From contig CAZMYL010000002.1 in the NCBI GenBank assembly GCA_964570505.1, forward strand, positions 53,414 to 117,413: DNA of 64,000 nucleotides. Reading direction: 5' to 3'. Within the stretch, counting starts at the first letter, position 1. The number at the start of each line of letters is the position of its first letter. Positions 3,878 through 63,039 of this stretch are shown one piece after another. This DNA comes from an uncultured Pseudomonadota bacterium. GTDB taxonomy: Bacteria; Babelota; Babeliae; Babelales; CAIQNR01. A program made the position numbers and the translations under genes. The notes under the pieces were generated by a model. It saw only the letters and a list, made by a program, of their open reading frames with translations. It had not been told where the DNA came from and did not search any database.

Positions 3878-5041
3878 ATGAGACATCCACTGTGGATAAT
3901 AAATAGCTCGCTTGCAACACTTTTATTTTTAAGCCTAGGTTTTATATTTTTTACACGTCAGGAATTACCTAAAAAGAAAAACTCTCCTAAGCAATCACCG
4001 GGTCAAGCGCCTATAAAAAAAGTTGAAGCGATTTCACTATCAAAAATTTATGAGAATGATTTATTTGATACTGTTAAACAACCAATACCAGAATTACAAC
4101 AACCAGAACATCTTAAAGAGGCTCCACAACCACCAGCGCAAACACAAATTATAATACCAACAGAACCGGAACAACCCCTTCTTCCACCGCTTGGTCTAAC
4201 ACTTAAAGGAGTAATGATCATCAGCGATGATAGTAATAACATTGCCATGATTGCTGACAATTCAACTTCAAAACAAAAAAATTACAAAGTTGGTGATATG
4301 ATCCAAGACGCTCAAATTATTAAAATATTTTCAAATCGAGTTGTATTGATCAGGTCGAACGGACAACAGGAATCTCTCTTTTTAACTGAAAAAGATATGA
4401 AAAGCGATCCATTGCTAATTAATGAAAAGGAGCGTTGGATTGATGTTGTATATAAAATGGATGATGGAGTTTACAAAGTTGATCCAGAAGCATTTCAACA
4501 AGCAATTCCTAATCTTTCATTATTAATTGATCTTTTTGATATAACAACAGTTTATAAAGAAGGAAAAAGTTTTGGATGTCGCATAGGAAGTATTAATCAT
4601 AGCACACTGGCAACATCATTGGGATTTGAAAATCATGATATTATAACAAAAGTTTTCAATCTTCCTATAACAACTGTTAATGAAAAAGTAGAAGCATACA
4701 AAGCTGTTGCAGGCTTAAAAAAGGGCGATATGTTTAAAATAGAAATTTTACGCAATAATAAGCCTGTTATTTTAATATATAAAATTGATGATTTGCAGGA
4801 TTCTCTTTTTAAAAATATAGAAAAAACTTCTAAACTAAATACAGTAGTTGCAGATAAAACAGGAATACTTGAAGGACCTTCTCCAGAAGAACTTGAACAA
4901 CAAAAAATAGCGCTCTTAAAAGAAAAATACCAATTTGCTCCAACCATGCAAGAAATAATCCTTGAACAAAAAAAAGCAATGATGCATGAAGCTCAAGAAA
5001 AAAGATTGCAAGATTTCTCATTTTCGGATGAAGCACAATGA
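3878..5041 (+). CDS. gspC: type II secretion protein C-like (TM, Pro-rich linker, HR-like domain, PDZ-like domain)
   Basis: The ORF is 387 aa. It has the N-terminal TM WIINSSLATLLFLSLGFIFF and the P/Q-rich linker PELQQPEHLKEAPQPPAQ. The HR-like block is LTLKGVMIISDD...YKVGDMIQDAQIIKIFSNRVVLIRSNGQQESL. The PDZ-like block is GCRIGSIN...LGFENHDIITKV...GDMFKIEILRNNKPV. Its stop overlaps the secretin start (ATGA at 5038-5041). Confidence 0.6.
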   Translation: MRHPLWIINSSLATLLFLSLGFIFFTRQELPKKKNSPKQSPGQAPIKKVEAISLSKIYENDLFDTVKQPIPELQQPEHLKEAPQPPAQTQIIIPTEPEQPLLPPLGLTLKGVMIISDDSNNIAMIADNSTSKQKNYKVGDMIQDAQIIKIFSNRVVLIRSNGQQESLFLTEKDMKSDPLLINEKERWIDVVYKMDDGVYKVDPEAFQQAIPNLSLLIDLFDITTVYKEGKSFGCRIGSINHSTLATSLGFENHDIITKVFNLPITTVNEKVEAYKAVAGLKKGDMFKIEILRNNKPVILIYKIDDLQDSLFKNIEKTSKLNTVVADKTGILEGPSPEELEQQKIALLKEKYQFAPTMQEIILEQKKAMMHEAQEKRLQDFSFSDEAQ

Positions 5042-7572
5042 AAATAAAATTAATAAAAAAATTAAAAATATCTCTTCTTTTTTCAGTATACATTCTTGCA
5101 CAAGCATCATCGGAAAATAGAAGCCTGTTGGCAAATTTAACACCTCAACAAAACACTCCATCTTTTATAAGTAATCCAATTATAGGAGCACCAAGTTCCA
5201 CAAGTGCTCCAATAGCGCCTGCTCAAAAAACAACTGCTGAAGAAAACAAAACTTTAAACACGCAAGAAATGTTGCCATTAAAAGATCAAAAGACTGAGCA
5301 AGAAGTTAAATCAATCGAAAAAAAAGACCATGTATTACCTTTGCCAGAACCAAAATTAGATGTAAAAAATGAATCAACAAAATCAAAAATAAACATATCA
5401 AAAGAAGATATCAGCAAAGATCAAATTATTCGTTTCTACTTTGAAGACGCAACGCTAGAAAATCTTGTTCGCTATATGGAAAAATTATTTGATATCAAAT
5501 TTTTTGCAGATGACGATATAGAACCAATGCCACAAGGTGGATCTGTTTTAAAAGGTCACAAAATAACTTTCAAGACTAATCAACCTCTTACTCGAGATGA
5601 AGCATGGAATCTATTTCTTAAATTTTTAGACATTGCTGGCCTTACTGTTGTTCCAACTGAAAGAAAAAAATTCTACTACATAACATCTGTAACCAATGCA
5701 AATAGTGAAGTTCTTGTAACATATTTTGATTCAAAAATATCTGATATTCCTGATAATAGTGGAAAAATACGTTACGTATTTTTTATAAAAAACGCTCCTC
5801 TTGCTACTATACAAAAAGTGATCAATTCATTTTCAAGCAGCACTGCCAAAATAAATGTCTTTCCAGAGCTTAATGCAATTATTGTTGTAGACAAAGGTTC
5901 TATAATTCGATCAGTTCTTAATATTGTTAAAGAATTTGATAAAGAAGTCCCTGAGTGTATGAGTGTATTAAAACTCAAAAAAGCAGATGCTCAGGATGTT
6001 GTAAAACTTTACACAGACTTAACTAATGCAGAAAGTCCTCAAGGTGTTGGAAAAATGTTTTCGGCAAAAGCTCAATCAGAATCAAATTTCTTTCCATCAA
6101 ATGCTCGTGTTCTTGCAGAACCTCGAACTAACTCTTTAATTATATTAGGCAATAGAAAAGCAATAAATAAAATTGAAGAGTTTATAAAAACTACTATCGA
6201 CACATCACTAGACCTTCCTTATTCACCTCTTTATATATATGAACTCCAATACACTCAAGCTGAAAACATGCAAAGAATCTTAACCTCTGTTGTTGATTTT
6301 GGATCTTCAACCGCCGCTGGGCAATTTGGTGGCGTAAGAGATGGAGATCAATATTTTAGACCCATGACGATTACAGCAGATACTGATGGAAATAGGCTCA
6401 TTATAAAAGCAGAAGAAGCTGATTATTTAAAACTTAAAGAAATGATTAAAAAGCTTGATGTTTTACAGCCACAAGTTGCAATTGAAGTTTTAATTGTAGA
6501 CGTTGAAGTAACAGATGAAAAAGAACTTGGTGCTCAAATTCGACAAAAATATCCTGCACAACCTTTTCCAAATGCTCAATTTGCAACAAGTGGTATGCCT
6601 GGTAATGGTTACCTTAATCAAGCAGTAATGCCAGAAACTGGATCGTCTTTGCTGGGTAATTTAATTGCTCTGGCACAAAATCAAACAGCAGGGGCAACGC
6701 TCCTTTCATTTGGTTCAGAACTTACCGGCGGTGTATGGGGAATGTTAAGAGTGCTTGAAACATACGGAAAAACAGATGTTATTTCTAATCCATTTTTATT
6801 AACAACAAATGGTTACACCGCTTTGGTAGAGCTGGGAACGACTCGTCGTATTAATACTTCTACATCACTTTCTGCTGGTGCGGCACAACAAGGTTTCCAG
6901 CCTATTACTGCAAACCTGACTGTAACTATTAAGCCTCAAATTAGTACTGATGGGGCTATTCAAATGGGCATTTCCATAAACATGACTGACTTTAGCAGTG
7001 AAGCGATTACCGATGGGAATACCAATCAAAAAATTGTACAGACGGCTGCAATTGTTAATGATAAAGAAATTTTAGTTCTTGGTGGGGTAGTTAAAACTTC
7101 CACAGCTGTATACATGTCAAAAGTGCCAATACTTGGCGATATTCCTATTATTGGATGGCTGTTTAGAAATAAACAAAAAATAAAAACAAAGAGTAATTTG
7201 TTAATTTTCATTTCTCCTCGCATCATTTACAGCAACACAGAAGAAGGCGCTAAAACATATACTCAATCAAAAACAAAAACTGTTAAAAATATTATGGACA
7301 GTTCAATTATTAGCAGCGGCAAAAAAGACCCTATTGATAATTCATTTTTTAATGAAAGTGACAGTGGTGGTAGCGAGTTTGCTTTCTTGAACAATCCTAC
7401 ACCTCACGAACATTTATATGATGCAAAAAGAAAACGACGAAGAACTCCAGAAGAACGGAAAAAAGCAGTTTCTGAAAATCAAACAGAGAAAAAATTATCA
7501 AAACGACAAATGCGCAAAGAAAGAATAAAAGAGCGTCAACTTCAGAAAAAGCAACAAAAGGGGCATGCATGA
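5038..7572 (+). CDS. gspD: secretin, GspD family (paralog 1)
   Basis: The ORF is 844 aa with a signal peptide and a linker of about 100 aa. The N0-like block is IRFYFEDATLENLVRYMEKLFDIKF, and the N-domain motif is AEPRTNSLIILG. The secretin core reads QPQVAIEVLIVDVEVTDEKELGAQ ... ILVLGGVVKT ... VPILGDIPIIGWLFRNK ... LLIFISPRII. The C-terminal tail is very basic. Confidence 0.9.
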   Translation: MKIKLIKKLKISLLFSVYILAQASSENRSLLANLTPQQNTPSFISNPIIGAPSSTSAPIAPAQKTTAEENKTLNTQEMLPLKDQKTEQEVKSIEKKDHVLPLPEPKLDVKNESTKSKINISKEDISKDQIIRFYFEDATLENLVRYMEKLFDIKFFADDDIEPMPQGGSVLKGHKITFKTNQPLTRDEAWNLFLKFLDIAGLTVVPTERKKFYYITSVTNANSEVLVTYFDSKISDIPDNSGKIRYVFFIKNAPLATIQKVINSFSSSTAKINVFPELNAIIVVDKGSIIRSVLNIVKEFDKEVPECMSVLKLKKADAQDVVKLYTDLTNAESPQGVGKMFSAKAQSESNFFPSNARVLAEPRTNSLIILGNRKAINKIEEFIKTTIDTSLDLPYSPLYIYELQYTQAENMQRILTSVVDFGSSTAAGQFGGVRDGDQYFRPMTITADTDGNRLIIKAEEADYLKLKEMIKKLDVLQPQVAIEVLIVDVEVTDEKELGAQIRQKYPAQPFPNAQFATSGMPGNGYLNQAVMPETGSSLLGNLIALAQNQTAGATLLSFGSELTGGVWGMLRVLETYGKTDVISNPFLLTTNGYTALVELGTTRRINTSTSLSAGAAQQGFQPITANLTVTIKPQISTDGAIQMGISINMTDFSSEAITDGNTNQKIVQTAAIVNDKEILVLGGVVKTSTAVYMSKVPILGDIPIIGWLFRNKQKIKTKSNLLIFISPRIIYSNTEEGAKTYTQSKTKTVKNIMDSSIISSGKKDPIDNSFFNESDSGGSEFAFLNNPTPHEHLYDAKRKRRRTPEERKKAVSENQTEKKLSKRQMRKERIKERQLQKKQQKGHA

Positions 7573-9068
7573 TCCATAACATATTTTTACCTGAAAAAAT
7601 TAATGATTATTATCTTTTTAAGAAAAAGATTGTTTCATTTACCTTTTCAAAAGAAACTGTCTCAGCTCTATGCGTAACATTACATGCACGAACAAAAGTT
7701 ATAAATGAAATCATCACAGAAAAAATTTTATATGATAATTATGAAACAGCTGATCTTGCATTACTTAACACAATTAAAAAAATTATTGATGCAATAGGTT
7801 CATACACAGAGGTAATAGTTGTTATAAACAGTGATCATGCAATTTTTAAAGAACTTACTATACCGCTTTTAGACGAAGAAAAAATTAGTCAAGTTGTAAA
7901 ATTTGAGCTTCAAGAATATTTGCCTTTTTCTGTAGAAAACGCAGTTTTTGACTTTATAATAACTAATCAAAATAAAGATACACAAACTTCAGATATTTTT
8001 ACTGTAGCATTACAAAAAGAAATAATTGATACATATACACGATTATTTTTAGAGCTTGAAATTAAAGTTGATACTTTTTCAATTGATGCATTTGATATAT
8101 ATGGTCTTTTTTTATCAACTAATAATACTATTGATGAAAAAGCAAAATTAATTGTGTCATCAAATGAAGCAAGAACCATAATTTTGTATCTTGAAAAGAA
8201 TATACTTAAAAAAATAAGAGTTTTAACAGAAAGTTCTAGCCTTAATAATACAGACAACAATAATGAAGATTGGTGGCAAAATATTAATTTTACGCTTGAA
8301 TCATGCACTCAAAATTGGACAGGCGAAAAAGAGATTGTTTTTCTTGGGACTTATTCATCAGAATTTATAGATAAAGCCACATCACAATTGAATGTTCCTT
8401 GCATTTATAACGATATAAAAAAAATTATAGAAAAATTTTCAATCGAAATATTAAAAGAAGATGACAAAGATGTAATTTCGCTAGCAAATCTTGCTGCATC
8501 GCTTGATTTACCATTAACTGAAAATTTCAACTTACAAATTACAACTAAAAGTGCAGATCTCTCAAAAAATGTCGTTATAAATTATGCCACCATAACAACG
8601 CTATTAATTATTATATATACATCACTTTGTCTTGATGCTTTTTTTGAAATAAAAAAATTCAAAAATGAATCAGAAAAAATTAAAACGAGTATTGTTAAAG
8701 ATTTAAAAGCTGCATTACCCTCGCTTAAATCAAATTCAGCTTCAGAATCTATCAGAAAAGCAAAAACAGAAATAGCAAAAGAAGAAAATATTTGGTTTGC
8801 ATTTTCAAGCCAAACAAAACATTCATTTTTAACCTATTTATTTGAATTAAGCACAATGATAGACAGAGAAACATTAGGGCTTAATCTTAAAAAAATGACC
8901 TTTAATAAAAATGGTATTATTCTTGATGGTAATGTACGAAGTTTTGATGCAGTAGAAGAATTAATTAAACAATTAAAAAATACAAACTTATTTGTGCAAG
9001 TGCCAAATCTACAAAAAACAGAATTTTCTATGCCTCTTACACTTATAAATCAAGAGGAAAGATCATGA
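7569..9068 (+). CDS. bitopic assembly-platform protein, GspL-like or PilM-PilN-fusion-like
   Basis: The ORF is 499 aa. It has a cytoplasmic part of about 330 aa, a single TM (VVINYATITTLLIIIYTSLCLDAFF) and a C-terminal part of about 140 aa. It has ATGA overlaps with both neighbours. The call rests on topology, size and position, not on a recognised motif. Confidence 0.45.
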   Translation: MIHNIFLPEKINDYYLFKKKIVSFTFSKETVSALCVTLHARTKVINEIITEKILYDNYETADLALLNTIKKIIDAIGSYTEVIVVINSDHAIFKELTIPLLDEEKISQVVKFELQEYLPFSVENAVFDFIITNQNKDTQTSDIFTVALQKEIIDTYTRLFLELEIKVDTFSIDAFDIYGLFLSTNNTIDEKAKLIVSSNEARTIILYLEKNILKKIRVLTESSSLNNTDNNNEDWWQNINFTLESCTQNWTGEKEIVFLGTYSSEFIDKATSQLNVPCIYNDIKKIIEKFSIEILKEDDKDVISLANLAASLDLPLTENFNLQITTKSADLSKNVVINYATITTLLIIIYTSLCLDAFFEIKKFKNESEKIKTSIVKDLKAALPSLKSNSASESIRKAKTEIAKEENIWFAFSSQTKHSFLTYLFELSTMIDRETLGLNLKKMTFNKNGIILDGNVRSFDAVEELIKQLKNTNLFVQVPNLQKTEFSMPLTLINQEERS

Positions 9069-9631
9069 TCAATATATTTCAAAAAATACATGATTATCTT
9101 TATACACTTGACACTAAAGATTTTTATAAAAATATAGGAATATTTTTAGGAGCAAATGTTTTAGTTTGCGCTTTTATTATGTATGCATCTTTAACAACTA
9201 TTGCTTCATATAAAAATTCACTTCAAGAAGATTATAAAAAAGAACAAGAGACAGCACAATTACTCAGAAGGCTTGCAAAAGTAAAAAAACAAAGTGAAGA
9301 AATAAATACAATTTTAGAACAAGAACCAACATTTAGAATTAAAAATTTCTATGATGACACTATAAAAAAATTAAACTTAGAAGCACATCAACGTCGACAA
9401 TCAGAAGTTTCTGAAGAAGATATACTAAGCGGACGCTATACAGAAATAAGATTAAATGCATTGTTAAATGGAATCGACACTCATCAATTATGTAACTTAC
9501 TACAAACTCTAGAAGAAAAAGATCGTATTTACATGAAAGAGCTCGTAATAACAAAAAAAGATTCTTTGATTGATGTTAATATTACAATTGCAACATTAAC
9601 ATTAGAAGATAATAGAAAAAAAGCAGTTTAA
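9065..9631 (+). CDS. GspM/PilO-like bitopic membrane protein
   Basis: The ORF is 188 aa. It has the N-terminal TM IGIFLGANVLVCAFIMYASLTTIA, a K/E/Q-rich coiled coil and a small C-terminal domain. The call is based on operon position between the L-like gene and the second secretin. Confidence 0.4.
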   Translation: MINIFQKIHDYLYTLDTKDFYKNIGIFLGANVLVCAFIMYASLTTIASYKNSLQEDYKKEQETAQLLRRLAKVKKQSEEINTILEQEPTFRIKNFYDDTIKKLNLEAHQRRQSEVSEEDILSGRYTEIRLNALLNGIDTHQLCNLLQTLEEKDRIYMKELVITKKDSLIDVNITIATLTLEDNRKKAV

Positions 9632-9643
9632 AAAGGTTTTATC

Positions 9644-12313
9644 ATGAAGAAGCTTGCCTTTATTTTATTTTCACTCACAGCTCTAGCTTCTTGGAGCTTG
9701 TCAGCAGAAATTATACCTGTTACAAAAAATTCTACTGTCTTCAAAAAACAAGAGGATTTTTCAGTAGATGAAAAACTTATATCATTTAGATTTAATCAAG
9801 CTCCATTAATTGAAATAATAAACATGCTTGCCGAAGAAAAAGGTCTCAATATAGTAATTCCAGCAGGGCAACAATCAATCGCTGAAAAAGTTACTTTTGA
9901 AATGCCAGAAAAAATAACTGTTGGAGAGGCGTGGGAAAGGCTTTTGAGCTTTTTAAGAATATGTGGATATTCGGTAATCTTTCAAAGAGAGTTTGTAACA
10001 ATCATAAAAAATGATCCTAAAGACACATCGCGTCAACCATTTCCTCTTTATGTACAAACCAGCACAAGTGTTATTCCTAATACTGATGAAAAAATTCGTT
10101 ATCTTTACTATTTTTATAACATGCAACTTTCAGGTGACTCAAATAGCGGATCTGTTATAGATATATTACAAGCATTTCTTTCCAAAGATGCAACAATATT
10201 ACCTTTAGATGATGGTAGTAACGGAATTGTAATAACTGATGGAGCTCGTCATATTGCTTCAACTATCAATCTTCTTAAAGAACTTGATGAAAGGATGCTG
10301 GGCAACGAAGGAAGAGAAGTTGTTAAACTCAAACACACCGTAGCAACAACAATTGCTGCTTACTTACAATCAATAATTAATCCATCAGGAAAGCAAATGG
10401 CAGGGGATATTGGAGCACCAGCAATGTCTCAATATTTTTCAAAAAACATTCGTATTGTTCCAGAACCTCGAACAAATTCTCTTATTTTATTAGGCAAAAA
10501 AGAACCCCTTGCTCGTATAAAATTATTTATAGAAGAATTTATTGATATAAAATTAGATTCAGGAGAATCAATTTTACATATTTATGATTTACAATATCTA
10601 GATGCAGCAACATTTAAACAAACATTAAGCAGTATTTTAGCTTCACAAGGAGCTGCCTCAAGTCAATCAAGTGGTTCTACTGCCAATAGCTCTGGGCAAC
10701 AATATTTTAAAGATGTAAAAATAGTCGCAGAATCAACACAAGCAGTTAACCCAGCAACGCTTGCTAGCGTTTCTTCTGGTAATGTTTCTGCCAATAATCA
10801 AGCAGGTAATCGATTAATTATTGCAGCAAAACGAGATGACTGGTTAAGAATAGAAAAACTTATTAAAGACTTAGATAAGCCTCAGCTTCAAGTAGCCATT
10901 GAAGTGTTAATTGTTGACTTGACTGTAGCTGAAGATAAAATTCTTGGCGCTCAATTACGCAATCTTTCTAGTTTAAGCATTGGAAGTGCAAATTTCCAAA
11001 CATCACACTTAGGTGGTAACGCAAATGGAGTATTTATTGAAGCTCCAGCAATAAATAGTACTAGTGGCGATCAGCTTAAGTCTGATCTTTTGCAAAAAAC
11101 TGGTAACAACTCTGCAGGAAACCAAGAAAATATGGCTTCTGGTTTTACAGCAGGTTCATTTATTTTATCATTTAAAGATCCTGCAACTAATGGTATGTGG
11201 CTTATTACGCAAATGCTTAATACATATCAAGATGCAAAAATACTTTCACAACCATTTATTGTTACGCTCAATAATCAACCAGGATCATTTAGCACAGTTC
11301 AAAGCAAATTGCTTGCAGGTGGATCAAGCGTTATTCCTGGTGGTGGTGGTGTACAATCATATAAAGAAAACGTCAAAGCTACCTTAGGTGTTAAATTAAC
11401 TCCTATGATAAGCCGTGATATGAGAATTAATTTAGCAATAGATGTATCTATTCAAGAATATCAAGATACTAACTCAACAGTTATTTTAAATAGAGCAATA
11501 CATACAAACGTCAATATTCGTGATGGCGAAATATTAGTTCTTGGAGGATTAACAAAAACAACTTTAACAAAAAGTGAGCGCTCAACACCAATTTTAAGTA
11601 GAATTCCAGTAGTTGGTAATCTTTTTAAAAGCAAAGACAATGCAAAATCAAAAGACAATCTTCTTGTTTTTATATCTCCTCGCATCATAATGCCAAGAAA
11701 AGAAGGTATATTTGATGCATACACCGCAAGTAAAATATCTAACGTTAATAAAATGTTTGATAACAACAATATGGAAAGTTTAAAAGATCCTATTACTCAC
11801 TGGTTTTTTGGCTCTGATCAAGATGAATTAGCAGTTAAAAAAGTAAAAATGCTCGGCAAAAAAGACCTATTTGATCAAGATATTGATTTAGAGAATGAAC
11901 GATCTTCAAAAATAATTATTGTAAATAAAAATGAGCAACTCTCTCCATCTGACATTAAAGAATCCGTTTCTTTAATTCCATCTCCAGACAAAACAGAATT
12001 AGACAAAACAGCTACTGGATTACCAAAATTAATTGTCCAAGCTCCTCCAAAAATAAATAACGTAAAAAAAGAAACAGATGAAGTTTTAAATGAAGCAATT
12101 TTAATGGAAGAGCTTAATAATCAACAAAATGAATCCTCACAGAAAAAAATAATTGAACGAACAAAAACAGGAATCCCTAAGATTATTGTAAAGCATCCAG
12201 AAAATATAATTAGAGAAAAAAAAGAAGAAGAATCAAATAACAATTTTGAGTATCTTAATAAAGAAGATGCTAATTTAAAAAAATTAGCATCACAACTTAA
12301 ACCTATTAATTAA
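9644..12313 (+). CDS. gspD: secretin, GspD family (paralog 2) with long C-terminal extension
   Basis: The ORF is 889 aa with a signal peptide. The N0-like block is ISFRFNQAPLIEIINMLAEEKGLNIVIP, and the N-domain motif is VPEPRTNSLILLG. The core reads LQVAIEVLIVDLTVAEDKILGAQ ... ILVLGGLTKT ... TPILSRIPVVGNLFKSK ... LLVFISPRII. A tail of about 200 aa follows. Confidence 0.9.
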   Translation: MKKLAFILFSLTALASWSLSAEIIPVTKNSTVFKKQEDFSVDEKLISFRFNQAPLIEIINMLAEEKGLNIVIPAGQQSIAEKVTFEMPEKITVGEAWERLLSFLRICGYSVIFQREFVTIIKNDPKDTSRQPFPLYVQTSTSVIPNTDEKIRYLYYFYNMQLSGDSNSGSVIDILQAFLSKDATILPLDDGSNGIVITDGARHIASTINLLKELDERMLGNEGREVVKLKHTVATTIAAYLQSIINPSGKQMAGDIGAPAMSQYFSKNIRIVPEPRTNSLILLGKKEPLARIKLFIEEFIDIKLDSGESILHIYDLQYLDAATFKQTLSSILASQGAASSQSSGSTANSSGQQYFKDVKIVAESTQAVNPATLASVSSGNVSANNQAGNRLIIAAKRDDWLRIEKLIKDLDKPQLQVAIEVLIVDLTVAEDKILGAQLRNLSSLSIGSANFQTSHLGGNANGVFIEAPAINSTSGDQLKSDLLQKTGNNSAGNQENMASGFTAGSFILSFKDPATNGMWLITQMLNTYQDAKILSQPFIVTLNNQPGSFSTVQSKLLAGGSSVIPGGGGVQSYKENVKATLGVKLTPMISRDMRINLAIDVSIQEYQDTNSTVILNRAIHTNVNIRDGEILVLGGLTKTTLTKSERSTPILSRIPVVGNLFKSKDNAKSKDNLLVFISPRIIMPRKEGIFDAYTASKISNVNKMFDNNNMESLKDPITHWFFGSDQDELAVKKVKMLGKKDLFDQDIDLENERSSKIIIVNKNEQLSPSDIKESVSLIPSPDKTELDKTATGLPKLIVQAPPKINNVKKETDEVLNEAILMEELNNQQNESSQKKIIERTKTGIPKIIVKHPENIIREKKEEESNNNFEYLNKEDANLKKLASQLKPIN

Positions 12314-12326
12314 AAGTTGAGATCGA

Positions 12327-13580
12327 TCAATCAATCTGATCTAAAAGATACATAGTTAAATTATCTTCTATCTCTATAAGTCGATTGTACTTTGCTATGC
12401 GTTCACCTCTTGAACAACCGCCAAGTTTAATTTGCCCAGCACTTGTGCCAACAACAAGATCTGTTATAAACGTTTCATTTGTTTCACCTAAGCTATGAGA
12501 AATAATTACATTAGCCCCCAATTCTTGAACAAATGCAATCGCCTGTAATATTTCAGTTACAGTTCCTATTATATTAGGTTTTATTACTATACTATTTGCT
12601 ACGCCATCCTGTAATCCACGTAGTATTTTGCTTTCTTCAGAAGAAAATAAATCATTACCTATGATTTGCAAAGTCTTTCCTAAATCATGAGTTAAATTTT
12701 TCCAACCCTCTTCATCTTGATTAGAAAATCCATCCTCTATAGAAAACAATGGATAAGTATCAGCAATTTTTTTGTAAAGTTTTAACATTTCTTCAGAATT
12801 TTTTTCTTCTGAAAAAATTAAATATTTTCCAGTATTTTGATTAAAAAAATGCTGAGATCCTGCATTAATTCCAATAACAAAAACATCATTAAGTTTTGAT
12901 TGCTTTAATGCTTCTACAATAAAATCAAATGGTTCAAAAATTGAAGAAAAGTTGGCATTAATACCTCCTTTGTCTCCTATGGCGATATGTTTTTTATTTT
13001 CTTTAAGAAGTTCACTTAAACATTTAGAAACAATTATTGCTTGCTCAAATGAATGTTTAAAATTTTGAGCACCAACTGGAACTAATAAAATTTCTTTAAA
13101 AGGAAATGATGAATCAGAAGAAGTCCCACCTTCTACAATAGTTATGAATGGGAATGGCAAAAGCACAGTCTCTGCATTAAACAATTCCGTTATTAATTCA
13201 AAAACTTCACATTCATAAATAATCGCTTGTGCTTTGCATATAGCCATACTAACAGCCAATAATGCACTTTTTCTAATTTTTTTTTTATCTTTATCGATAC
13301 TATTCTTATAGAAGTCCAATAAAATTGCATCCATTAAAGAAACGTCTGGCTCTCTGCCAATTAAAATTGGCGCTATTACAGATTCAATCATTTTAATTAA
13401 ATCCGCAATAGAGTAATTCTCTGTGTCATTTAGGTCTAAATAATCAGCAGAATTTTCATACCAATCAGATGGAACTGAAGCTTCAACGGTAGTTCCATCC
13501 TCCAATGAAATTAAGCAAGCCAATGTAGGATATCCTCTAGAGTCAAAAATTTCTTTTGCTCTAACTCTGGAAATGTTCAC
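12327..13580 (-). CDS. eno: enolase-family protein with a degenerate active site (possible pseudo-enolase)
   Basis: The ORF is 417 aa with a clear enolase scaffold: RAKEIFDSRGYPTL, FSIEDGF, SIVIKPNIIGT and AGQIKLGGCSRGERIAKYNRLIEIED. Several catalytic motifs are altered; see the finding for 12327-13580. Confidence 0.85.
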   Translation of the reverse strand: MNISRVRAKEIFDSRGYPTLACLISLEDGTTVEASVPSDWYENSADYLDLNDTENYSIADLIKMIESVIAPILIGREPDVSLMDAILLDFYKNSIDKDKKKIRKSALLAVSMAICKAQAIIYECEVFELITELFNAETVLLPFPFITIVEGGTSSDSSFPFKEILLVPVGAQNFKHSFEQAIIVSKCLSELLKENKKHIAIGDKGGINANFSSIFEPFDFIVEALKQSKLNDVFVIGINAGSQHFFNQNTGKYLIFSEEKNSEEMLKLYKKIADTYPLFSIEDGFSNQDEEGWKNLTHDLGKTLQIIGNDLFSSEESKILRGLQDGVANSIVIKPNIIGTVTEILQAIAFVQELGANVIISHSLGETNETFITDLVVGTSAGQIKLGGCSRGERIAKYNRLIEIEDNLTMYLLDQID

Positions 13581-13601
13581 TCACTCTCCCTTTCTTTTTT
13601 A

Positions 13602-15392
13602 TTACTCTTTTTTAAATTTATCTTTTTGTGCAAGCACAGATAAACCATATTCTCGAAGAACTGAAGCTTCCGCAGTTGTTGGAGCCTGCATCATAGGATC
13701 GTGACCTCTTTGAGTTTTAGGAAATGCAATAACTTCTCGAATTGAATTTACTTTTGCAAGAATCATAATAAATCTATCAATGCCTAAAGCTATACCGCCA
13801 AGAGGGGGAAATCCATACTCAAGAGCTTCAAGTAAAAATCCAAATTTCTTTTGCATGTCTTCTTCTTTAAGGCCAAGCAATTCAAAAACTTTCGCCTGTA
13901 GTTCTTTGTTGTAAATACGTATAGAACCTCCTCCAAGCTCCATACCATTGCAAACTAAATCATATGCTTGAGCTGTCATTTGATCAGGAGATTGCTGCTC
14001 CCATCCAACTGCTGGAGCAGTAAATGGGTGGTGCACAGAATTCCATTTCCCAGTTTCTTCATCCATTTCAAAAAGTGGAAAATCGACAACCCAACATAAA
14101 TGCAAAATGTCTTGATTAATAAGACCTAATTCTTTACCAAGACCTAATCTTAAGCGTCCAAGTATTTCCCAAGTTAATTTATATTGACCTGCAACAAAAA
14201 ACAAAGTATCGCCATATTCGAGATCTTTAAAAATAGCCTTAGATTTTTCATAAAAATCATTTGGTAAAAAATTTGATACAGGAGATTCAATAGACCCATC
14301 TGAGGCAAATCTAACATAAAGCAATCCTTTTGCTCCAAACTCTTGCGCTTTTGTTACCCATGAATCAAGTTGAGATCGAGTAAACGTTGACTTATTAACA
14401 TGTAATGCACCTACTTTGCCACCTTTTTCCAAAACAGTTTGTAAAAACTTTAATTCTGTTTTTTCAAAAAGCGATGAAGCATCATAAATTGGCATACCAA
14501 ATCTTAAGTCAGGCTTATCACTTCCGTACGCATGAAATGCTTGTTGGTAAGTAATTACCGGAAGGGGAAGTTTGATTTCTATATTAAAAATTTTTTTAAA
14601 TACATAAACGAGCATTTGATCAATAACACCACGAATATCATGAGCATCAATAAAAGACATTTCTATATCAAGCTGAGTAAATTCAGGCTGCCTATCTGCT
14701 CGCAAATCTTCATCTCTAAAGCAACGTGCTATTTGGAAATATCGCTCTATTCCACCTGCCATTAACAACTGTTTATATAGTTGTGGCGACTGAGGAAGAG
14801 AATAAACAGAACCATGATGTAGTCTGCTTGGAACCAAAAATTCACGCGCTCCTTCTGGTGTGTTTTTTGTTAAAACAGGAGTTTCAATTTCAAAAAATCC
14901 GCGTTGTATAAAAAATTCACGCATAGTAAAAAGAACAATACTACGCAAAGCTAAACGTTGTTGCATTTCTGGTCTACGAAGGTCTAAATAACGATAACGA
15001 AGACGCAATTCTTCATCAATTTTTTCGCCATCTTCAAGAGCAAACGGTAATTGTTTTGCACTATTAAGAAGAATCATCGAAGAAACTTGTAATTCAAATT
15101 TACCTGTTGGCATTTTATCATTAATTGTTTCATTTGATCGCTTTACAACTTTGCCAGTAACAGAAATAACAAACTCTGAGCGTAAGTTTTGAGCTTGGTC
15201 ATGAGCTTCTTTAGAATAATCAGGATTAAACACAATTTGCATAATTCCAGTACGATCACGCAAATCAACAAAAATCAATCCTCCATGATCTCTTCTTCTA
15301 GAAATCCAACCATTAAGCACAACTTCCTGATTTAGATTTTTTTCTCCAACTAATCCGCACTCTACTGTACGCTTCCAAGTTTGTATTGCCAT
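13602..15392 (-). CDS. aspS: aspartyl-tRNA synthetase
   Basis: The ORF is 596 aa. It has class II motifs (FQIARCFRDEDLRADRQPEFTQLD; GGGSIRI; GIALGIDR) and an N-terminal OB-fold anticodon-binding domain. Confidence 0.95.
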   Translation of the reverse strand: MAIQTWKRTVECGLVGEKNLNQEVVLNGWISRRRDHGGLIFVDLRDRTGIMQIVFNPDYSKEAHDQAQNLRSEFVISVTGKVVKRSNETINDKMPTGKFELQVSSMILLNSAKQLPFALEDGEKIDEELRLRYRYLDLRRPEMQQRLALRSIVLFTMREFFIQRGFFEIETPVLTKNTPEGAREFLVPSRLHHGSVYSLPQSPQLYKQLLMAGGIERYFQIARCFRDEDLRADRQPEFTQLDIEMSFIDAHDIRGVIDQMLVYVFKKIFNIEIKLPLPVITYQQAFHAYGSDKPDLRFGMPIYDASSLFEKTELKFLQTVLEKGGKVGALHVNKSTFTRSQLDSWVTKAQEFGAKGLLYVRFASDGSIESPVSNFLPNDFYEKSKAIFKDLEYGDTLFFVAGQYKLTWEILGRLRLGLGKELGLINQDILHLCWVVDFPLFEMDEETGKWNSVHHPFTAPAVGWEQQSPDQMTAQAYDLVCNGMELGGGSIRIYNKELQAKVFELLGLKEEDMQKKFGFLLEALEYGFPPLGGIALGIDRFIMILAKVNSIREVIAFPKTQRGHDPMMQAPTTAEASVLREYGLSVLAQKDKFKKE

Positions 15393-40479: not shown

Positions 40480-40555
40480 TGGAGCGGAAGACGGGATTCG
40501 AACCCGCGACCTTTGCCATGGCAAGGCAACGCTCTACCAGCTGAGCTACTTCCGC
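40480..40555 (-). tRNA. tRNA-Gly (anticodon GCC), CCA encoded
   Basis: The 76-nt cloverleaf was folded by hand: acceptor gcggaag/cttccgc, D arm gctc-agctggta-gagc, anticodon stem ttgcc/ggcaa with loop ttGCCat, T arm gcggg-ttcgaat-cccgt, discriminator t, then cca. Confidence 0.95.
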
Positions 40556-43065: not shown

Positions 43066-45267
43066 TTATAAATTTTCAATCTCTGAAATTTTAACATTAT
43101 TTAGTGACAGATTTAAGCTATGCTTTTCAAAACCAAGGTTTACAATTTTATCAATCAATTCCATAGGTTTAATTCCAACCTCTGCGGCTTGGTGAAAAAG
43201 ACAAGTTGCAGGAGTAAGTGCCGGAAGTGAATTAATTTCTAAAATAACAACACGATCTTTTTTTGTAGGACTTTGTTCTGCTGTTTGATAAAAACAGTCA
43301 ATTCGTGCATATCCAGAGCATTGAGCTGCAATATAAACTTGCTCAATTATTTTTTTTACATAGTTCAAAATTTCATTTGAAAGTGGGGCAGGAGTTTGAT
43401 TTTCTCCCGCTCCTGGTAAAAATTTTTCTTCGATACTTAATATTCCATTACTTGCAACAGCTTGGCTTGGAGGAAGAGCTTGTACATTACTTCCATTTCC
43501 TATTACACCTACTGTTAATTCCATGCCTACTATACATTCTTCTATAAGCGCAAAATCTTTGTTGTGAGCAAATATTGATTCAATAGCATGTACAAGTTCT
43601 TCTTGGTTCTTTGCTTTTGAAACCATTACGCTGCATCCATCATCATGAGGTTTTATGATAAAAGGGAAATTGATTGTTTTTTGAATATTATCAAGGATTT
43701 CTATTTTATTATTATTCCATTCAGTATTTTTAATAAGTATTCCTTGAGGAACATCAAAACCTTCAGATTTTAAGAAAGAAGTTGTTTCATATTTATTCAT
43801 AGCAAGAGCGCTTGCAAGAACAGACGATCCATTGTAAGGGATTTTTAATGTTTCTAGCATGCCTTGAACTGCTCCATTTTCACCAAGGCCTCCATGAAGG
43901 CCAATAAAAATAAAATCAAATTTTTCAGGCAGCGATGCCCAGCTTATTTTTGATGATCTATCAAGATCATATTCTATTTCTGCTGTTGTATTATGAACAA
44001 GCAATTTTTGATTCAGCGGATAAATATCCATTTTAGAGTCAAGAAAGAGGGGGGTTGTTTCATATTTTTCTGGAGAAAGCTTGTAGCAAACATTTCTTCC
44101 AGAATTCAATGATGTTTCTTTTTCATTAGATGCTCCTCCAAGAAGCACTCCAATGCGTATTTTTTTATTAAACGTTGTGTTCATAGACTCTTTTTTATTG
44201 CTTGAAGTGAAACCCTTATAGTTTTTAAATTCACTTTCAATTAAATAATTAATAATTTCTGTGTGACTCATATTAAGTTGGGCTGCTTGATTAAAAAAGA
44301 AGCTTGAAGGAGACATTCCGCAGAGCGTATTAGGATCAATGATTACAATTGACCCATCCTTTTTTAAAAAGCCATCAATTCTGGATATTGTGGAAAAATG
44401 AAGAGCCTTCATAACAGAAAGGCATGTTTCTTGAATGTTTAAAATGTCTTTTTGAGAGCATCGCGCAGGTGTATATTTTTGAGCATAGCCAGGCATATAT
44501 TTATGCTCATAATCAAGTATATACGAATCTTTATTAAGGGTTAATTCTGTTGGAGGGAGCGCTAAAATTTTCCCCGTTTCTGGATGTACTAATGTTACAC
44601 AGGTGAACTCCATTCCTTCAATTTTTTCTTCTATTAAAACTGGTTGCGGGTTGTAAGGATCTATGAACATTGCATATTGTACATTAGTTAACAAATCTTT
44701 TGCATTTAATACGATGCTAACTCCCAAACTTGATCCTTCTTGGCATGGTTTTATGATAACAGGAAATTGTAGGTTTTGTTCTTTTAAAAGTTTTAAAAGG
44801 TTTGATTCTGAAAGTTTTTGTGGCTCTATTGTTATTGATTGTGGAGTAGCAATCTTATGAGACTTGAGTACTTTTTTTTGAATTGATTTATTCATACCTA
44901 AAGCGCTGCCAAAAATTTTTGAACCTAGATAAGGAATGTTTAAAACTTCAAGTAAGCCTTGCAAGCATCCATCTTCTGCATAGCGGCCATGTTGGGCTAT
45001 GTATATAAAATCAACATAGTTTTTAAGATCATCCCAAGTTATTAATGTTGCCTCTGTGTGCAGTCTATGTTCAAAATCTTTTATTTTTCCTCGATATAAA
45101 AAATTCCATGGTAAAAGATAAAGTTTATTATCTTGAGACTGGAAAAGTGGAATTGCATTATAACGGGTTGTATCAAGATGATCACAAATAGTTCTTCCTG
45201 AGCTTAAAGATACTTCTTTTTCAATTGACATTCCGCCCATTAAGACGCCGATTTTTGCTATATGCAT
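43066..45267 (-). CDS. ddl: tandem D-alanine--D-alanine ligase fusion (Ddl-Ddl)
   Basis: The ORF is 733 aa and contains two complete Ddl modules. Module 1 has IGVLMGGMSIEKEVSLSSG ... QEGSSLG ... DYEHKY ... SRIDGF ... DPNT. Module 2 has IGVLLGGASNEKETSLNSG ... DDGCSVM ... SIEEKF ... ARIDCF ... LEINS. Confidence 0.85.
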   Translation of the reverse strand: MHIAKIGVLMGGMSIEKEVSLSSGRTICDHLDTTRYNAIPLFQSQDNKLYLLPWNFLYRGKIKDFEHRLHTEATLITWDDLKNYVDFIYIAQHGRYAEDGCLQGLLEVLNIPYLGSKIFGSALGMNKSIQKKVLKSHKIATPQSITIEPQKLSESNLLKLLKEQNLQFPVIIKPCQEGSSLGVSIVLNAKDLLTNVQYAMFIDPYNPQPVLIEEKIEGMEFTCVTLVHPETGKILALPPTELTLNKDSYILDYEHKYMPGYAQKYTPARCSQKDILNIQETCLSVMKALHFSTISRIDGFLKKDGSIVIIDPNTLCGMSPSSFFFNQAAQLNMSHTEIINYLIESEFKNYKGFTSSNKKESMNTTFNKKIRIGVLLGGASNEKETSLNSGRNVCYKLSPEKYETTPLFLDSKMDIYPLNQKLLVHNTTAEIEYDLDRSSKISWASLPEKFDFIFIGLHGGLGENGAVQGMLETLKIPYNGSSVLASALAMNKYETTSFLKSEGFDVPQGILIKNTEWNNNKIEILDNIQKTINFPFIIKPHDDGCSVMVSKAKNQEELVHAIESIFAHNKDFALIEECIVGMELTVGVIGNGSNVQALPPSQAVASNGILSIEEKFLPGAGENQTPAPLSNEILNYVKKIIEQVYIAAQCSGYARIDCFYQTAEQSPTKKDRVVILEINSLPALTPATCLFHQAAEVGIKPMELIDKIVNLGFEKHSLNLSLNNVKISEIENL

Positions 45268-53390: not shown

Positions 53391-53906
53391 ATGACTACTG
53401 TTAAATCTTTATTAATAGGATTATTAATATCTGTAAATTTGAGTTTTTCATCTTCTTTAAAGAATAGTCAAGAAGAACAAAGAACGGATGCTATTCGACG
53501 ATATTCTCAATCCTTGCCAGATAAATTTGATGAAAATTTAGCGCGTCCTTTATTAGATAGTCAAGATCATATAGTTGTTAATCAGCCAATTCGCCCAAAA
53601 AAAGATCGTCATGTGCATTATGAAGAATTTCGAGCAATAGCTCAAAATAATCCAGTAACTCCTCATAATATTCAAGAGCCTATTGCCACACGTTATTCAT
53701 TAAATATGCCAGGGAGTGTTGGGCTACCAGAAGGAAGAGTTTCTGAAGAATATTTTAAAACTAAAGAAAAATCTTTTTGTGATAAAGAAATATGCTCTTT
53801 TCCTGTTCGCTGTGCAGCATTTGTATTAGTACCATTTACTATTGTGTCTGGAGCAGCAGTAACTGCTTTTTGGTATATAATTCATGAGTCAAATAAAAAT
53901 GATTAA
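53391..53906 (+). CDS. signal-peptide protein with C-terminal TM anchor, unknown function
   Basis: The ORF is 171 aa. It has the N-terminal signal LLIGLLISVNLSFSSS and the C-terminal hydrophobic segment CAAFVLVPFTIVSGAAVTAFWYII. Confidence 0.5.
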   Translation: MTTVKSLLIGLLISVNLSFSSSLKNSQEEQRTDAIRRYSQSLPDKFDENLARPLLDSQDHIVVNQPIRPKKDRHVHYEEFRAIAQNNPVTPHNIQEPIATRYSLNMPGSVGLPEGRVSEEYFKTKEKSFCDKEICSFPVRCAAFVLVPFTIVSGAAVTAFWYIIHESNKND

Positions 53907-53951
53907 AAAAGAATAAATTTTGTTAATAGTTTTTTAAAAAAGGTTGTTTAA

Positions 53952-54209
53952 ATGAAGAAGATTTTTTTATTTTTATTTCTTATAAATAGTAATTTATATT
54001 CTGCCAGTCGACCTTCAGATAGTGTTGTTATTGATATGGAGCCAGCCTCTGAAAAAAAATGTGAAAAACTTGCTCGTAAAAAAGAATATGTAGAAATTGA
54101 AAGGGATGAGCTCGGAAGACTTGCTGTTGTTGTATGCGACCAAAAATCGTGTGTTGATGATTATCTAGGAAGCTTTTTGCTTTCTTGCATATGTGCTTTT
54201 GTTCTTTAA
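53952..54209 (+). CDS. small signal-peptide protein with Cys-rich hydrophobic C-terminus (paralog of 54234-54536)
   Basis: The ORF is 85 aa with the signal MKKIFLFLFLINSNLYSAS, an aaaaagg RBS, and the C-terminus GSFLLSCICAFVL. Confidence 0.5.
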   Translation: MKKIFLFLFLINSNLYSASRPSDSVVIDMEPASEKKCEKLARKKEYVEIERDELGRLAVVVCDQKSCVDDYLGSFLLSCICAFVL

Positions 54210-54233
54210 TTTTAATAAAAGAAGGGTACTAAA

Positions 54234-54536
54234 ATGAAAAAATATCTAATTTTGTTTATTGCAATAAACAAAATTTTTTCTGCATCAGAAAGCATGATTT
54301 CTAGTCAGCCGTTAAAAAATGATCAACATAAAGTTAGACGTCTTTTTGTTAAGTGCAAAGAGAGGTGTTCTTCTTGTGGTGGTTTTATAGCAGAAACAAG
54401 AAATTCTGATAAAATAATTATTGAAGAATTAGGTGTAGCGACAAAGCGTGAGTTACATACTTGTATACTTGGGTTTTCAACGGGAATCTTAATGAGGGCT
54501 GCTATTGCTACATATTGTGGTATTTGCTCTTTTTGA
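54234..54536 (+). CDS. small signal-peptide protein with Cys-rich hydrophobic C-terminus (paralog of 53952-54209)
   Basis: The ORF is 100 aa with the signal MKKYLILFIAINKIFSAS, a gaaggg RBS, and the C-terminus AAIATYCGICSF. Confidence 0.5.
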   Translation: MKKYLILFIAINKIFSASESMISSQPLKNDQHKVRRLFVKCKERCSSCGGFIAETRNSDKIIIEELGVATKRELHTCILGFSTGILMRAAIATYCGICSF

Positions 54537-54807: not shown

Positions 54808-54877
54808 TAATGTAAGTTTTTTGGGTTTAGCCCTTAAAAAGTCAAAAAAATTCTTCCTAAAATCAAAGGATAAGTCG

Positions 54878-55138
54878 ATGGCAACGAGTAAATCTGGTGG
54901 TTCAACATCAAACGGTCGTGATAGTATTGGTAGAAGACTTGGTACTAAAAAGTATGCTGGTGAAGTAGTTCAACCTGGCGATATTATTATTCGTCAAAGA
55001 GGAACTAAGTTTCATGCTGGCGATGCTGTTGGTATGGGTAAAGATCATACATTATACGCACTTGGCGCTGGTACAGTGAGATTTCATTACCGTAGTGGTG
55101 GTCGAAAATATGTATCTATAGATTCAGTTTCTGAGTAA
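54878..55138 (+). CDS. rpmA: 50S ribosomal protein L27
   Basis: The sequence [25 protein letters not shown]...[13 protein letters not shown] matches L27. The ATG at 54878 follows an aaagga RBS. The longer ORF from 54821 (TTG) is rejected. Confidence 0.93.
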
Positions 55139-56253: not shown

Positions 56254-57981
56254 ATGAAAGATGATAAAATGACTAACTCTGTTGCACCAAAAAAGAAAAC
56301 AGTTGTTCGTAAAAAAGAGCCAAAAGTAGTAGTGACAGAACAAATTATTGATCAGCAATCTATTCAGCAGGTAGTTGTTACTCCTCCTGTTTCTGTTGTA
56401 GCCGCTCCGGTTTTACCATCTGTTCAAGTTGTGTCTCAAGGTGAACAGGTTCAAAAACCAGCACGAGAAGGTGTAAGAAAACAATATACACCTAGAAGTC
56501 ATAATTCATCTCGTAATCAAAATCAGTCATCAACTCAGCGTCAAGAAAATTATCCAAGTATTCAAAATGGAAATCAGTCGCAAGTTCAATATTCACATCA
56601 GCAATCACAACAAAATCAGCAAAATTATCATCATCAAAGACAGCAAGATATTTCTCCGAAGGTTTTACTGCGCGAACAAATGGAAGAGCTCTCTGTGCAA
56701 GAACTCAATGTTCATGCACGTCGTTGGGGAATTATCGGTTCAAGTTTGATGCTTCATAGGGAGTTGGTAGAAAAAATACTTGAAGCTCAACAGCATCCAG
56801 ATAGAGAAATTGCTGTTGAAGGTTTGCTCGAAAAACTTCCAGATGGATTTGGTTTTTTACGTTCACAGAAATTTGATTATATCTCAAGTCCTGATGATGT
56901 GTATGTTTCTCCATCACAAATTCGTAGATTCGGTTTGCGTACTGGAGATACGGTTACAGGAACTATTCGTAAGCCAAAAGAAGGTGAAAAATATTTTGCA
57001 TTATTAAAAGTTGATAAAGTTAATTTTCAAGATCCTGTAAAGCTTAATGAGCGACCAACTTTTGATCGCTTGTCTCCAATGCATCCTGATAAAAAATTTA
57101 CGCTTGAATCAGATCCTCTTAAAATATCAACACGCTTAATGGATATTTTTACACCAGTAGGTCGTGGCCAAAGAGGTCTTATTGTTGCCCCTCCAAAAGC
57201 TGGTAAAACTATGCTGCTTAAAGAGATTGCGCAAAGTTTGATTTCTAATCATCCAGATGTTTATTTGATGGTTCTTCTTATAGATGAACGACCTGAAGAG
57301 GTTGCAGATATGAGAAGGTTTGTTAAAGGTGCTCATGCTGAAGTAATTAGTTCGACATTTGACGAATCAGCAGAGCGACATGTTCAAGTTGCAGAAATTG
57401 TGCTTGAAAAAGCAAAAAGATTTGTAGAATCAGGTAAAGATGTTGTAATTCTTCTTGATGCAATTACTCGCTTAGCGCGTGCTTATAATACAACAGCACC
57501 AGCTTCTGGTAAGGTGTTGACCGGAGGTATTGATGCAAATGCACTACAAAGACCAAAGCGTTTCTTTGGGGCAGCTCGTAGTATGGAAGAAGGTGGATCT
57601 CTTACCATTATAGCAACTGCTCTTGTAGAAACAGGCTCTCGTATGGATGAAGTTATTTATGAAGAGTTTAAAGGTACCGGTAATATGGAAATGCATTTAA
57701 GTAGAAAACTTGCAAATCGCCGTATTTACCCTGCTTATGACTTGCTTATGTCATCAACCCGTAGAGATGATTTGTTATTTTCAGATGAAGAACAAAAACG
57801 TTCATGGGTTCTTCAAAAATTCTTGGCAAACATGAATCCTATCGAAGGAATGGAATTTATGATTGATAAGATGAAGAAATTTAAAACCAATGAAGAGTTT
57901 TTTGATTCTATGAATAAGCAACGACCTGTTAATGGTTCATCAAATGGAAATGGCAATAATAGTACATCAGAATTAAAATAA
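56254..57981 (+). CDS. rho: transcription termination factor Rho with a ~135-aa N-terminal extension
   Basis: The ORF is 575 aa. It has a Rho_N helix bundle ([15 protein letters not shown]), a cold-shock-like RNA-binding domain (GFGFLRS), the P-loop APPKAGKT, and RecA-type motifs. Confidence 0.95.
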
Positions 57982-60759: not shown

Positions 60760-60896
60760 AAGACTTCCCTTTTTTAAAAGCTTGTTGTGTTGATTCTGAT
60801 TTGTTAAAATATATTTTATTATCTTCATTTTTAATATTTCAAATCTATAACTTACTCTAAGATTTCTAGAGCAATAAATAAATATTAAGGGGCATT

Positions 60897-61358: not shown

Positions 61359-61368
61359 GGGGTTTATT

Positions 61369-63036: not shown

Positions 63037-63039
63037 TTT

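Follow-up and report, generated by a model that had tools for sequence, protein, structure and literature searches.

An enolase gene (eno) in a metagenomic contig from the Dependentiae has kept its place in the genome and its full length, with much of the active site that defines the enzyme replaced. The gene lies on the reverse strand of a 64,000-nucleotide stretch of contig CAZMYL010000002.1 (assembly GCA_964570505.1), and this whole 64-kb stretch is called the window below. By position the window gene is orthologous to a normal enolase gene and is not a spare paralog, and after the loss of the canonical residues its product has been under purifying selection, with a constraint that is now tighter in the scaffold than in the segments of the former active site. 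The explanation that we favor, at a probability of about 0.68, is that the ancestral eno of an intracellular, host-dependent lineage, the only copy detected, has lost its enzymatic function and persists as a selected pseudoenzyme. The same transition has occurred repeatedly, in that at least seven Dependentiae lineages have, by tree and species-order comparisons, lost the catalytic set independently. Every sequence compared here comes from a metagenome assembly.

The open reading frame (ORF) is intact and full length, as an initial annotation made from the letters alone had described it, and encodes 417 amino acids between a GTG start and a TGA stop. Both Pfam domains of the family are matched (Enolase_N, E=5e-17; Enolase_C, E=1e-67), and the closest solved structure by sequence is the Enterococcus hirae enolase 1IYX, which aligns end to end (E=3.4e-75). 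An AlphaFold2 model built with 40 homologs has a mean predicted local distance difference test score (pLDDT) of 88.2 and a predicted template modelling score (pTM) of 0.88; confidence is low solely at residues 41-54 (pLDDT <50) and 96-99. When this model was searched with Foldseek, the best matches in the PDB were all enolases, with a template modelling (TM) score of about 0.89. The score of the window protein against the TIGR01060 "eno" model is 335.8 bits, above the equivalog cutoff of 300 and 120-130 bits lower than the 457-468 bits of canonical orthologs. The sister protein P0002 falls under the cutoff at 296, and other degenerate enolases score 296-306. Logan assembly L001 (2285 bp), a separate assembly that possibly derives from the same reads, is identical to the window over the eno gene. 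The protein begins MNISRVRAKEIF..., in which no signal peptide is evident by eye, no predictor having been applied.

A Shine-Dalgarno-like sequence, AAAGGGAGAG, precedes the start codon and is present in all orthologous loci. The start codon itself is GTG in four of the five degenerate orthologs examined, a small sample (the window, L002, L009 and L010, with ATG in the degenerate L007), and ATG in the canonical L004, L005 and L006; the starts of L002 and L009 lie at 10001 and that of L010 at 1830. The GTG codon may mean that expression has been lowered.

The substitutions were located with HMMER alignments to 1IYX and 4A3R and with MAFFT alignments that included E. coli enolase and 120-268 homologs; substituted positions are given in E. 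coli numbering and coordinates (Table 1) in those of the window. The general acid Glu209 has become lysine, the Mg(II) ligand Ser42 is now tyrosine in a rewritten L1 catalytic loop, His159 is serine, and the phosphate-binding pair Arg371/Ser372 has become serine and leucine. The Mg(I) triad Asp246/Glu290/Asp317 reads Asn239/Glu282/Asn309 in the window protein, so that two of the three ligands are replaced. The initial annotation had listed these changes, together with the retention of Glu168, Glu290, Lys342, His370 and Lys393, from a register set by eye; that register turned out to be right at every motif, the five retained residues are the same in the alignments, and the position given for the Glu209-to-Lys codon was exact. 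The alignments extend the list to Gln167, now lysine, and to Gly40, Asp98, Gly107, Asn109, Asn152, Ala248, Gln345 and Asp377. A Lys-rich segment, SIDKDKKKIRKS, with a three-residue insertion replaces the conserved DGT..K.KLGAN motif, and its DKDKKKI core is common to the window protein and P0002. Among the 54 columns that are at least 95% conserved in 208 canonical homologs, 17 are changed in the window protein versus 0-1 in the nearest canonical orthologs, a load far beyond chance.

The roles of these residues in the working enzyme have been described. Lys345 acts as the base and Glu211 as the acid, Mg(I) is coordinated by an Asp/Glu/Asp triad and Mg(II) by Ser39, and the substrate ligands are Glu168, Glu211, Lys345, Arg374 and Ser375 (PMC4450660); in this yeast numbering Glu211 and Lys345 are the E. 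coli Glu209 and Lys342. Because of the published roles of the replaced residues, loss of 2-phosphoglycerate dehydratase activity is predicted, and the initial annotation, which had argued that normal activity is improbable, agrees with the literature on this point (PMC4450660).

Whether relatives share the substitutions, a question raised by the same annotation, has a clear answer. The closest relative, P0002 (74% identical, from GCA_031972475.1), has most of them: Tyr42, Ser159, Lys/Arg167, Lys209, Asn317 and Leu372 are shared, and Asp246 is kept. Fifteen of the 17 altered conserved columns are also altered in P0002, nine with the same residue, and most of the residue loss is therefore older than the split between the two lineages. 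The Mg(II)-loop serine, His159, Glu209, Asp317 and Arg371/Ser372 were lost before that split; the window lineage later acquired Asp246Asn, and P0002 acquired Gly207Ser. P0003, P0004 and P0005, which come next in relatedness at 64-66% identity to the window protein, are fully canonical. The loci have a common slot, nusA-infB-GT4-AP endonuclease-OMP-aspS-eno (OMP, outer-membrane protein), followed by a convergent secretin-p188-pilM cluster. Because the window gene occupies the same aspS-eno-secretin slot as the canonical enolases of its sister lineages, it degenerated in place.

Selection on the gene after the loss was measured by pairwise Nei-Gojobori comparison of the window with locus L002, in which synonymous sites are near saturation, making the eno estimate conservative. 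For eno, the nonsynonymous (dN) and synonymous (dS) rates are 0.173 and 1.05, and their ratio, omega, is 0.164 (95% confidence interval, CI, 0.110-0.229). For aspS, which served as the rate control, the corresponding values are 0.047, 0.75 and 0.062, for the secretin gene 0.055, 0.75 and 0.074, and for the OMP-like gene 0.049, 0.86 and 0.058. In the canonical pair L004 and L005, eno gives 0.099, 1.01 and 0.098 and aspS gives 0.073, 0.72 and 0.101. The dN/dS ratio that the initial annotation had proposed to measure is thus 0.16 after the loss, far under 1. Furthermore, both degenerate lineages (window and L002) keep full-length ORFs after a dS of about 1; in neutral simulations of the ORF, the probability of finding no stop codon was 0.002 at 0.1 substitutions per site, and 0 of 2,000 simulated sequences were stop-free at 0.2 or more.

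The distribution of changes within the protein is the reverse of that in working enolases. A Tajima relative-rate test counts 83 changes unique to the window lineage versus 7 unique to P0003 (p=1e-15), an acceleration of about 12-fold. Of the 83, 48 fall in active-site segments, which were defined from the alignment and not from three-dimensional coordinates and make up about 29% of positions, and 35 fall in the scaffold. Window and L002 are 66% identical in the active-site segments and 77% identical in the remainder (p=0.018), the opposite of canonical pairs, in which the active-site segments are the more conserved (88 versus 84% and 85 versus 67%). Between the window protein and its closest relative, the L1 loop (E. 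coli 37-60) is 21% identical and L2 is 63% identical with an indel. The window protein is therefore selected, though not for the old pocket.

Several of the substitutions are single steps of the kind that replaces G or C by A or T (GC-to-AT): Glu to Lys (GAA to AAA), Asp to Asn (GAT to AAT), Gln to Lys (CAA to AAA) and Ser to Leu (TCA to TTA). First-codon-position GC content is 0.43-0.46 in degenerate eno genes versus 0.49-0.54 in canonical orthologs, and 0.51-0.53 in the aspS genes of the degenerate genomes themselves. Because mutation in this 31% GC genome is AT-biased, recurrent E209K and D317N are expected once catalysis is no longer selected; such recurrence is weak evidence for a designed new site and need not be adaptive. 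Asp317Asn, Asp377Glu and the change of Ser372 to Leu, Ile or Thr are convergent in three independent syntenic degenerate lineages (represented by the window, L002, L009, L007 and L010). Asp377Glu (GAT to GAA or GAG) is not a GC-to-AT step, and mutation bias does not explain that convergence. A separate idea, that the charge of the whole protein has been remodelled, was rejected, as the isoelectric point (4.6-4.7) and net charge (about -23) are alike in degenerate and canonical orthologs.

The window lineage is one of several in which enolase has taken this path. In a neighbor-joining tree of about 130 Dependentiae-type enolases, built from scaffold columns only, there are nine non-canonical groups, and Fitch parsimony requires a minimum of 7-9 changes to the non-canonical state. 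The nearest neighbor of every degenerate group is a canonical enolase, and in 47 of 50 bootstraps the window protein and its canonical relatives form a clade from which the other degenerate lineages are absent. By aspS identity the loci are ordered as window/L002 (0.92), L004 and L005 (0.88), L009 (0.80), and L007 and L010 (0.64), and on this species order canonical genes are nested among degenerate ones. A single origin of the degenerate enolases was rejected on all three grounds, namely the nearest-neighbor identities, the neighbor-joining and Fitch results, and the aspS-based species order. The loci of P0094, P0091, P0062 and P0059 all have an intact ORF in the same aspS-eno-secretin slot; the source assembly is GCA_040384165.1 for P0094 and GCA_021735725.1 for P0059.

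These lineages differ in how far the process has gone. An older clade (P0087, P0091, P0094, P0109, P0114 and P0116) has additionally lost Lys342, Lys393 and His370; between its loci L007 and L010, omega is 0.067 for eno (CI 0.036-0.097) and 0.076 for aspS, and the former active-site segments (66% identity) show no extra conservation over the rest (67%). The window lineage, with its omega of 0.16, looks like a younger and less settled stage of conversion, and the P0094 clade, at 0.067, like a settled one. P0059 carries only E209K and D318N, scores 462.6 with TIGR01060 and is named phosphopyruvate hydratase by NCBI; it may represent the first step of degeneration. In a wider set of 149 added proteins, drawn from a 50%-identity representative search and cluster look-ups, 48 depart from the canonical residue at one or more of 14 key positions, though truncation or alignment gaps affect some of these. 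A further observation is that nine enolase homologs (P0128, P0160, P0184, P0194, P0196, P0203, P0206, P0220 and P0229) are 560-890 amino acids long, with the enolase part C-terminal to extensions or fusions of 200-430 amino acids.

How a housekeeping enzyme might come to this state can be outlined as follows. The protein would no longer bind two Mg2+ ions and 2-phosphoglycerate, nor dehydrate that substrate. Catalysis would have become dispensable because an energy-parasitic lineage no longer runs lower glycolysis, and the active site would then have decayed under AT-biased mutation. Selection would then act on the folded body of the enolase, probably still a dimer, in the role of a binding or scaffold subunit, for which candidate partners include the RNA-processing machinery, an envelope or host-facing role, and the co-transcribed aspartyl-tRNA synthetase and tRNA system. 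With regard to the last of these, aspS pairs with eno in every related locus, and the conserved, tight co-transcription may be plain synteny. Dependentiae take up ATP, and their central metabolism varies, from part of glycolysis together with the pentose phosphate pathway at one end to the lack of any complete pathway at the other (PMC4776705, PMC6561590). The sequence in view for the questions of a second eno and of glycolysis was the 64-kb window plus flanks. Among the 120 best homologs listed, no other lies on a contig of 189,298 bp (the length of the window's contig) or 790,653 bp (that of P0002), a weak hint that a second eno is lacking. Window ORFs of at least 120 amino acids were annotated by Pfam, except for five at 60028-63954, or by synteny with pre-annotated relatives, and no glycolytic or phosphoenolpyruvate (PEP)-using enzyme was found among these annotated ORFs, the five just mentioned lying outside the Pfam scan. 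The suggestion of the initial annotation that the gene is retained for another role is backed by its positional orthology, its omega of 0.16, the conserved ribosome-binding site and the recurrence of such genes, including one fully constrained lineage.

Some considerations weigh on the other side. The five retained residues Glu168, Glu290, Lys342, His370 and Lys393 mean that some residual pocket function is possible. Active D-glucarate dehydratases, members of the same superfamily, have asparagine as their third metal ligand, and on that precedent Asp317Asn alone need not end metal binding. The window/P0002 degenerate lineage is, moreover, known from two sequences, and the site-level conservation of its new residues is weakly sampled.

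The retained residues are also the starting point for an alternative, which we consider unlikely, that the pocket, in its changed form, catalyzes a different reaction or recognizes a new anionic ligand. Lys209 at the end of barrel strand 2 lies opposite Lys342 on strand 6, much like the Lys/Lys acid-base pair of the muconate-lactonizing enzyme (MLE) subgroup of the superfamily, and the positive charge brought by Gln167Lys could stand in for the lost metal. Lys342, His370, Lys393, Glu168 and Glu290 are all kept; Lys209, Lys/Arg167, Asn317, Leu372, Ser159 and Tyr42 are common to both members of the lineage after a dS of about 1, and the overall omega of 0.16 is that of a functional protein. The recurrences fit as well, since Glu209Lys arose independently in P0059/65/122, P0123, P0153 and P0177, and Asp317Asn with Asp377Glu in three syntenic lineages. 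The MLE subgroup is marked by lysines on strands 2 and 6, an intact acidic metal triad and conserved specificity loops; alignment places the Lys204/Lys334 pair accordingly, but the window protein has Asn/Glu/Asn for a triad, and identity between the two members is 21% in L1 and 63% in L2. A specific form of the idea, in which Lys204 faces Lys334 and Lys162 replaces the metal charge in a new and possibly metal-independent superfamily member, either an enzyme of the epimerase or racemase type or a sensor for some anionic metabolite of the host, is quite unlikely; if it held, the recurrent Glu209Lys, Asp317Asn and Asp377Glu would be adaptive convergence. A pocket under selection for a new function is hard to reconcile, however, with specificity loops that are the least conserved parts of the protein, with active-site segments that outpace the scaffold, and with the loss of an additional metal ligand, Asp246, in the window lineage only. 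The changes that recur are those that mutation bias predicts, namely single steps from GC to AT, and other degenerate lineages drop Lys342 and Lys393 too, leaving no shared new catalytic set. New chemistry, one of the roles offered in the initial annotation, is disfavored by this drift of the pocket segments.

If the pocket is drifting, the whole gene might be doing so, and the ORF might simply have been caught before its first stop codon or frameshift. The strong rate acceleration, an omega about 2.5 times that of neighboring genes, the weaker GTG start, the fall of the TIGR01060 score from about 460 to 336 and 296 bits, and losses that are still under way (Asp246Asn in the window only, Gly207Ser in L002 only) would all be expected of a functionless gene. 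Such decay is nonetheless decidedly improbable, because on the post-loss branches omega is 0.16 with an upper bound of 0.23, the pairwise interval excludes 1, and full-length ORFs survive in both lineages after a dS of about 1, for which the neutral simulated chance is 0.002 or less. The ribosome-binding site is conserved, the model folds confidently, and the older degenerate clade in the same slot is still intact at an omega of 0.067. The opposite possibility, that a weak or compensated enolase still supplies PEP for MurA- or KdsA-type reactions, is most improbable, even though the protein passes the TIGR01060 cutoff (335.8 versus 300), keeps the Lys342 base, Lys393, His370, Glu168 and one metal ligand, and shares the window with enzymes of cell-wall synthesis, namely an MraY-like GT4 and the Ddl-Ddl fusion protein. 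An organism with peptidoglycan synthesis needs PEP. What stands in the way is the number and kind of the replacements: neither the general acid nor the phosphate-binding pair survives, His159 and the serine loop for Mg(II) have been replaced, only one of the three Mg(I) ligands is left, and 17 of 54 conserved columns are changed versus 0-1 in canonical orthologs. Single mutations in the yeast enzyme (E211Q, E168Q and K345A) were each reported by Poyner et al. in 1996 to lower activity about 10^5-fold, and residual activity, given seven simultaneous losses, would be very unlikely.

The gene content of the window, at about 31% GC, is typical of Dependentiae (TM6/Babeliales): it includes a type II secretion system (T2SS)/type IV pilus-like cluster with two secretins, aspS, nusA, infB, gatB, thyX and transfer-messenger RNA (tmRNA), and those nearest homologs that are named by source come from metagenome-assembled genomes of candidate division TM6 or Babeliales. 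The features are collected in Table 1. The gene order of the pilus-like cluster is kept in all related loci, and its 889-amino-acid secretin has a long, low-complexity C-terminal tail rich in Lys, Glu and Asn. A short way upstream of an ORF resembling ribosomal protein L27 are three consecutive small ORFs whose products have signal-peptide-like N-termini (MTTVKSLLIG... in the 171-residue product, MKK... in the 85- and 100-residue ones); the 171-residue ORF, the one of the three that was searched, has no Pfam match, and the trio may encode lineage-specific secreted proteins. Rho, at 575 amino acids, has about 185 residues before its RNA-binding domain, an N-terminal extension relative to E. coli Rho, which is about 420 amino acids long. 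Within the 64 kb, the only Rfam matches above gathering score are the tmRNA (159 bits) and one tRNA.

Table 1. Features of the window (coordinates of the 64-kb window; the last four rows are degenerate eno genes at other loci)
Feature	Coordinates	Strand	Remarks
Pseudo-enolase ORF	12327..13580	-	Enolase_N + Enolase_C
GTG start codon	13578..13580	-	
Shine-Dalgarno-like sequence	13584..13593	-	
L1 catalytic loop SDWYEN, residues 38-43	13452..13469	-	PSGASTG to PSDWYEN; alignment
Tyr41 at Ser42, Mg(II) ligand	13458-13460	-	alignment
Lys-rich segment, residues 94-105	13266..13301	-	
Ser154 at His159	13119..13121	-	alignment
Lys162 at Gln167, then retained Glu163 (Glu168)	13092..13097	-	alignment
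Lys204 (AAA) at general-acid Glu209	12969..12971	-	alignment
Asn239 at Mg(I) ligand Asp246	12864..12866	-	window lineage only; P0002 keeps Asp
Glu282, retained Mg(I) ligand Glu290	12735..12737	-	alignment
Asn309 at Mg(I) ligand Asp317	12654..12656	-	same change in three independent syntenic lineages
Lys334, retained general base Lys342	12579..12581	-	alignment
His362, retained His370, then Ser363/Leu364	12489..12497	-	alignment
Ser363/Leu364 at phosphate-binding Arg371/Ser372	12489-12494	-	alignment
Lys385, retained Lys393	12426..12428	-	alignment
aspS (aspartyl-tRNA synthetase)	13602..15392	-	directly upstream of eno, same strand, 21-nt spacer
T2SS/type IV pilus-like cluster	3878-12313	+	secretins of 844 and 889 aa, T2SSC-like, 499-aa PilM-domain and 188-aa proteins
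RNase E/G homolog	34510-36024	-	504 aa; S1, catalytic and thioredoxin-like domains; no C-terminal scaffold
tRNA	40483-40555	-	
Ddl-Ddl fusion	43066-45267	-	733 aa; two complete D-Ala-D-Ala ligase units in tandem
Three consecutive small ORFs	53391-54536	+	171, 85 and 100 aa
Ribosomal protein L27-like ORF	54821-55138		
Rho	56254-57981	+	
tmRNA	61882-62258	+	
Degenerate eno, L007	10001-11254		
Degenerate eno, L009	10001-11254		
Degenerate eno, L010	1830-3083		
Degenerate eno, L091	4113-5363		

Enolase is among the most conserved of enzymes, and the moonlighting roles reported for it have been hard to untangle from catalysis. The degenerate Dependentiae proteins would be natural separation-of-function alleles; if our explanation is true, bacterial enolase has a catalysis-independent role that matters for fitness, and these proteins offer a way to find it. 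A practical consequence is that automated metabolic reconstructions of Dependentiae will count a glycolytic step that is probably absent, because the window protein passes the TIGR01060 cutoff and NCBI names P0059 phosphopyruvate hydratase. The searchable literature yielded no earlier description of a bacterial pseudo-enolase, Dependentiae enolase included. Pseudoenzymes as such are known, and so are moonlighting enolases; what would be new is a housekeeping bacterial enolase ortholog that has, as its sequences suggest, been turned repeatedly into a conserved dead form.

The closest known system is canonical bacterial enolase itself (EC 4.2.1.11; 1IYX, E. coli 1E9I, and P0003 and P0005 among the Dependentiae), which has the same two-domain fold and length. 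Canonical Dependentiae orthologs share 65% identity with the window protein and sit in the same genomic slot, and solved enolases share 33-34% with a TM score of about 0.89. The window protein differs from canonical enolase in its inverted conservation of pocket and scaffold, its roughly 12-fold faster evolution and the changes in 17 of 54 near-invariant columns. The other degenerate Dependentiae enolases (P0087/P0091/P0094/P0109/P0114/P0116; P0062; P0123; P0059/P0065) show a similar loss of the active site and share Asp317Asn, Asp377Glu and Ser372 to Leu or Ile with the window protein convergently; they represent independent events, the window protein being, for each of them, more distant than a canonical enolase.

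A second parallel is with moonlighting enolases, such as that of the E. coli degradosome, carried on RNase E (PDB 2FYM, 5OHG), and the plasminogen-binding enolases of streptococci, in which the enolase body is a binding platform apart from its chemistry. The known examples are all catalytically competent, whereas the window protein would keep the second role alone. A degradosome-like scaffold had been given as an example in the initial annotation; the E. coli type is unsupported, because the only RNase E/G homolog in the 64-kb window that was searched lacks the enolase-binding C-terminal scaffold. Finally, there is the general class of pseudoenzymes, dead homologs that are kept for regulatory or scaffold roles, and a related precedent is the recruitment of enolase as the lens tau-crystallin. 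As in that class, the window protein has lost catalytic residues and kept its fold under purifying selection. Most of the pseudoenzymes described so far, however, are paralogs that stand beside an active copy, whereas the window protein is encoded by the housekeeping gene's own positional ortholog.

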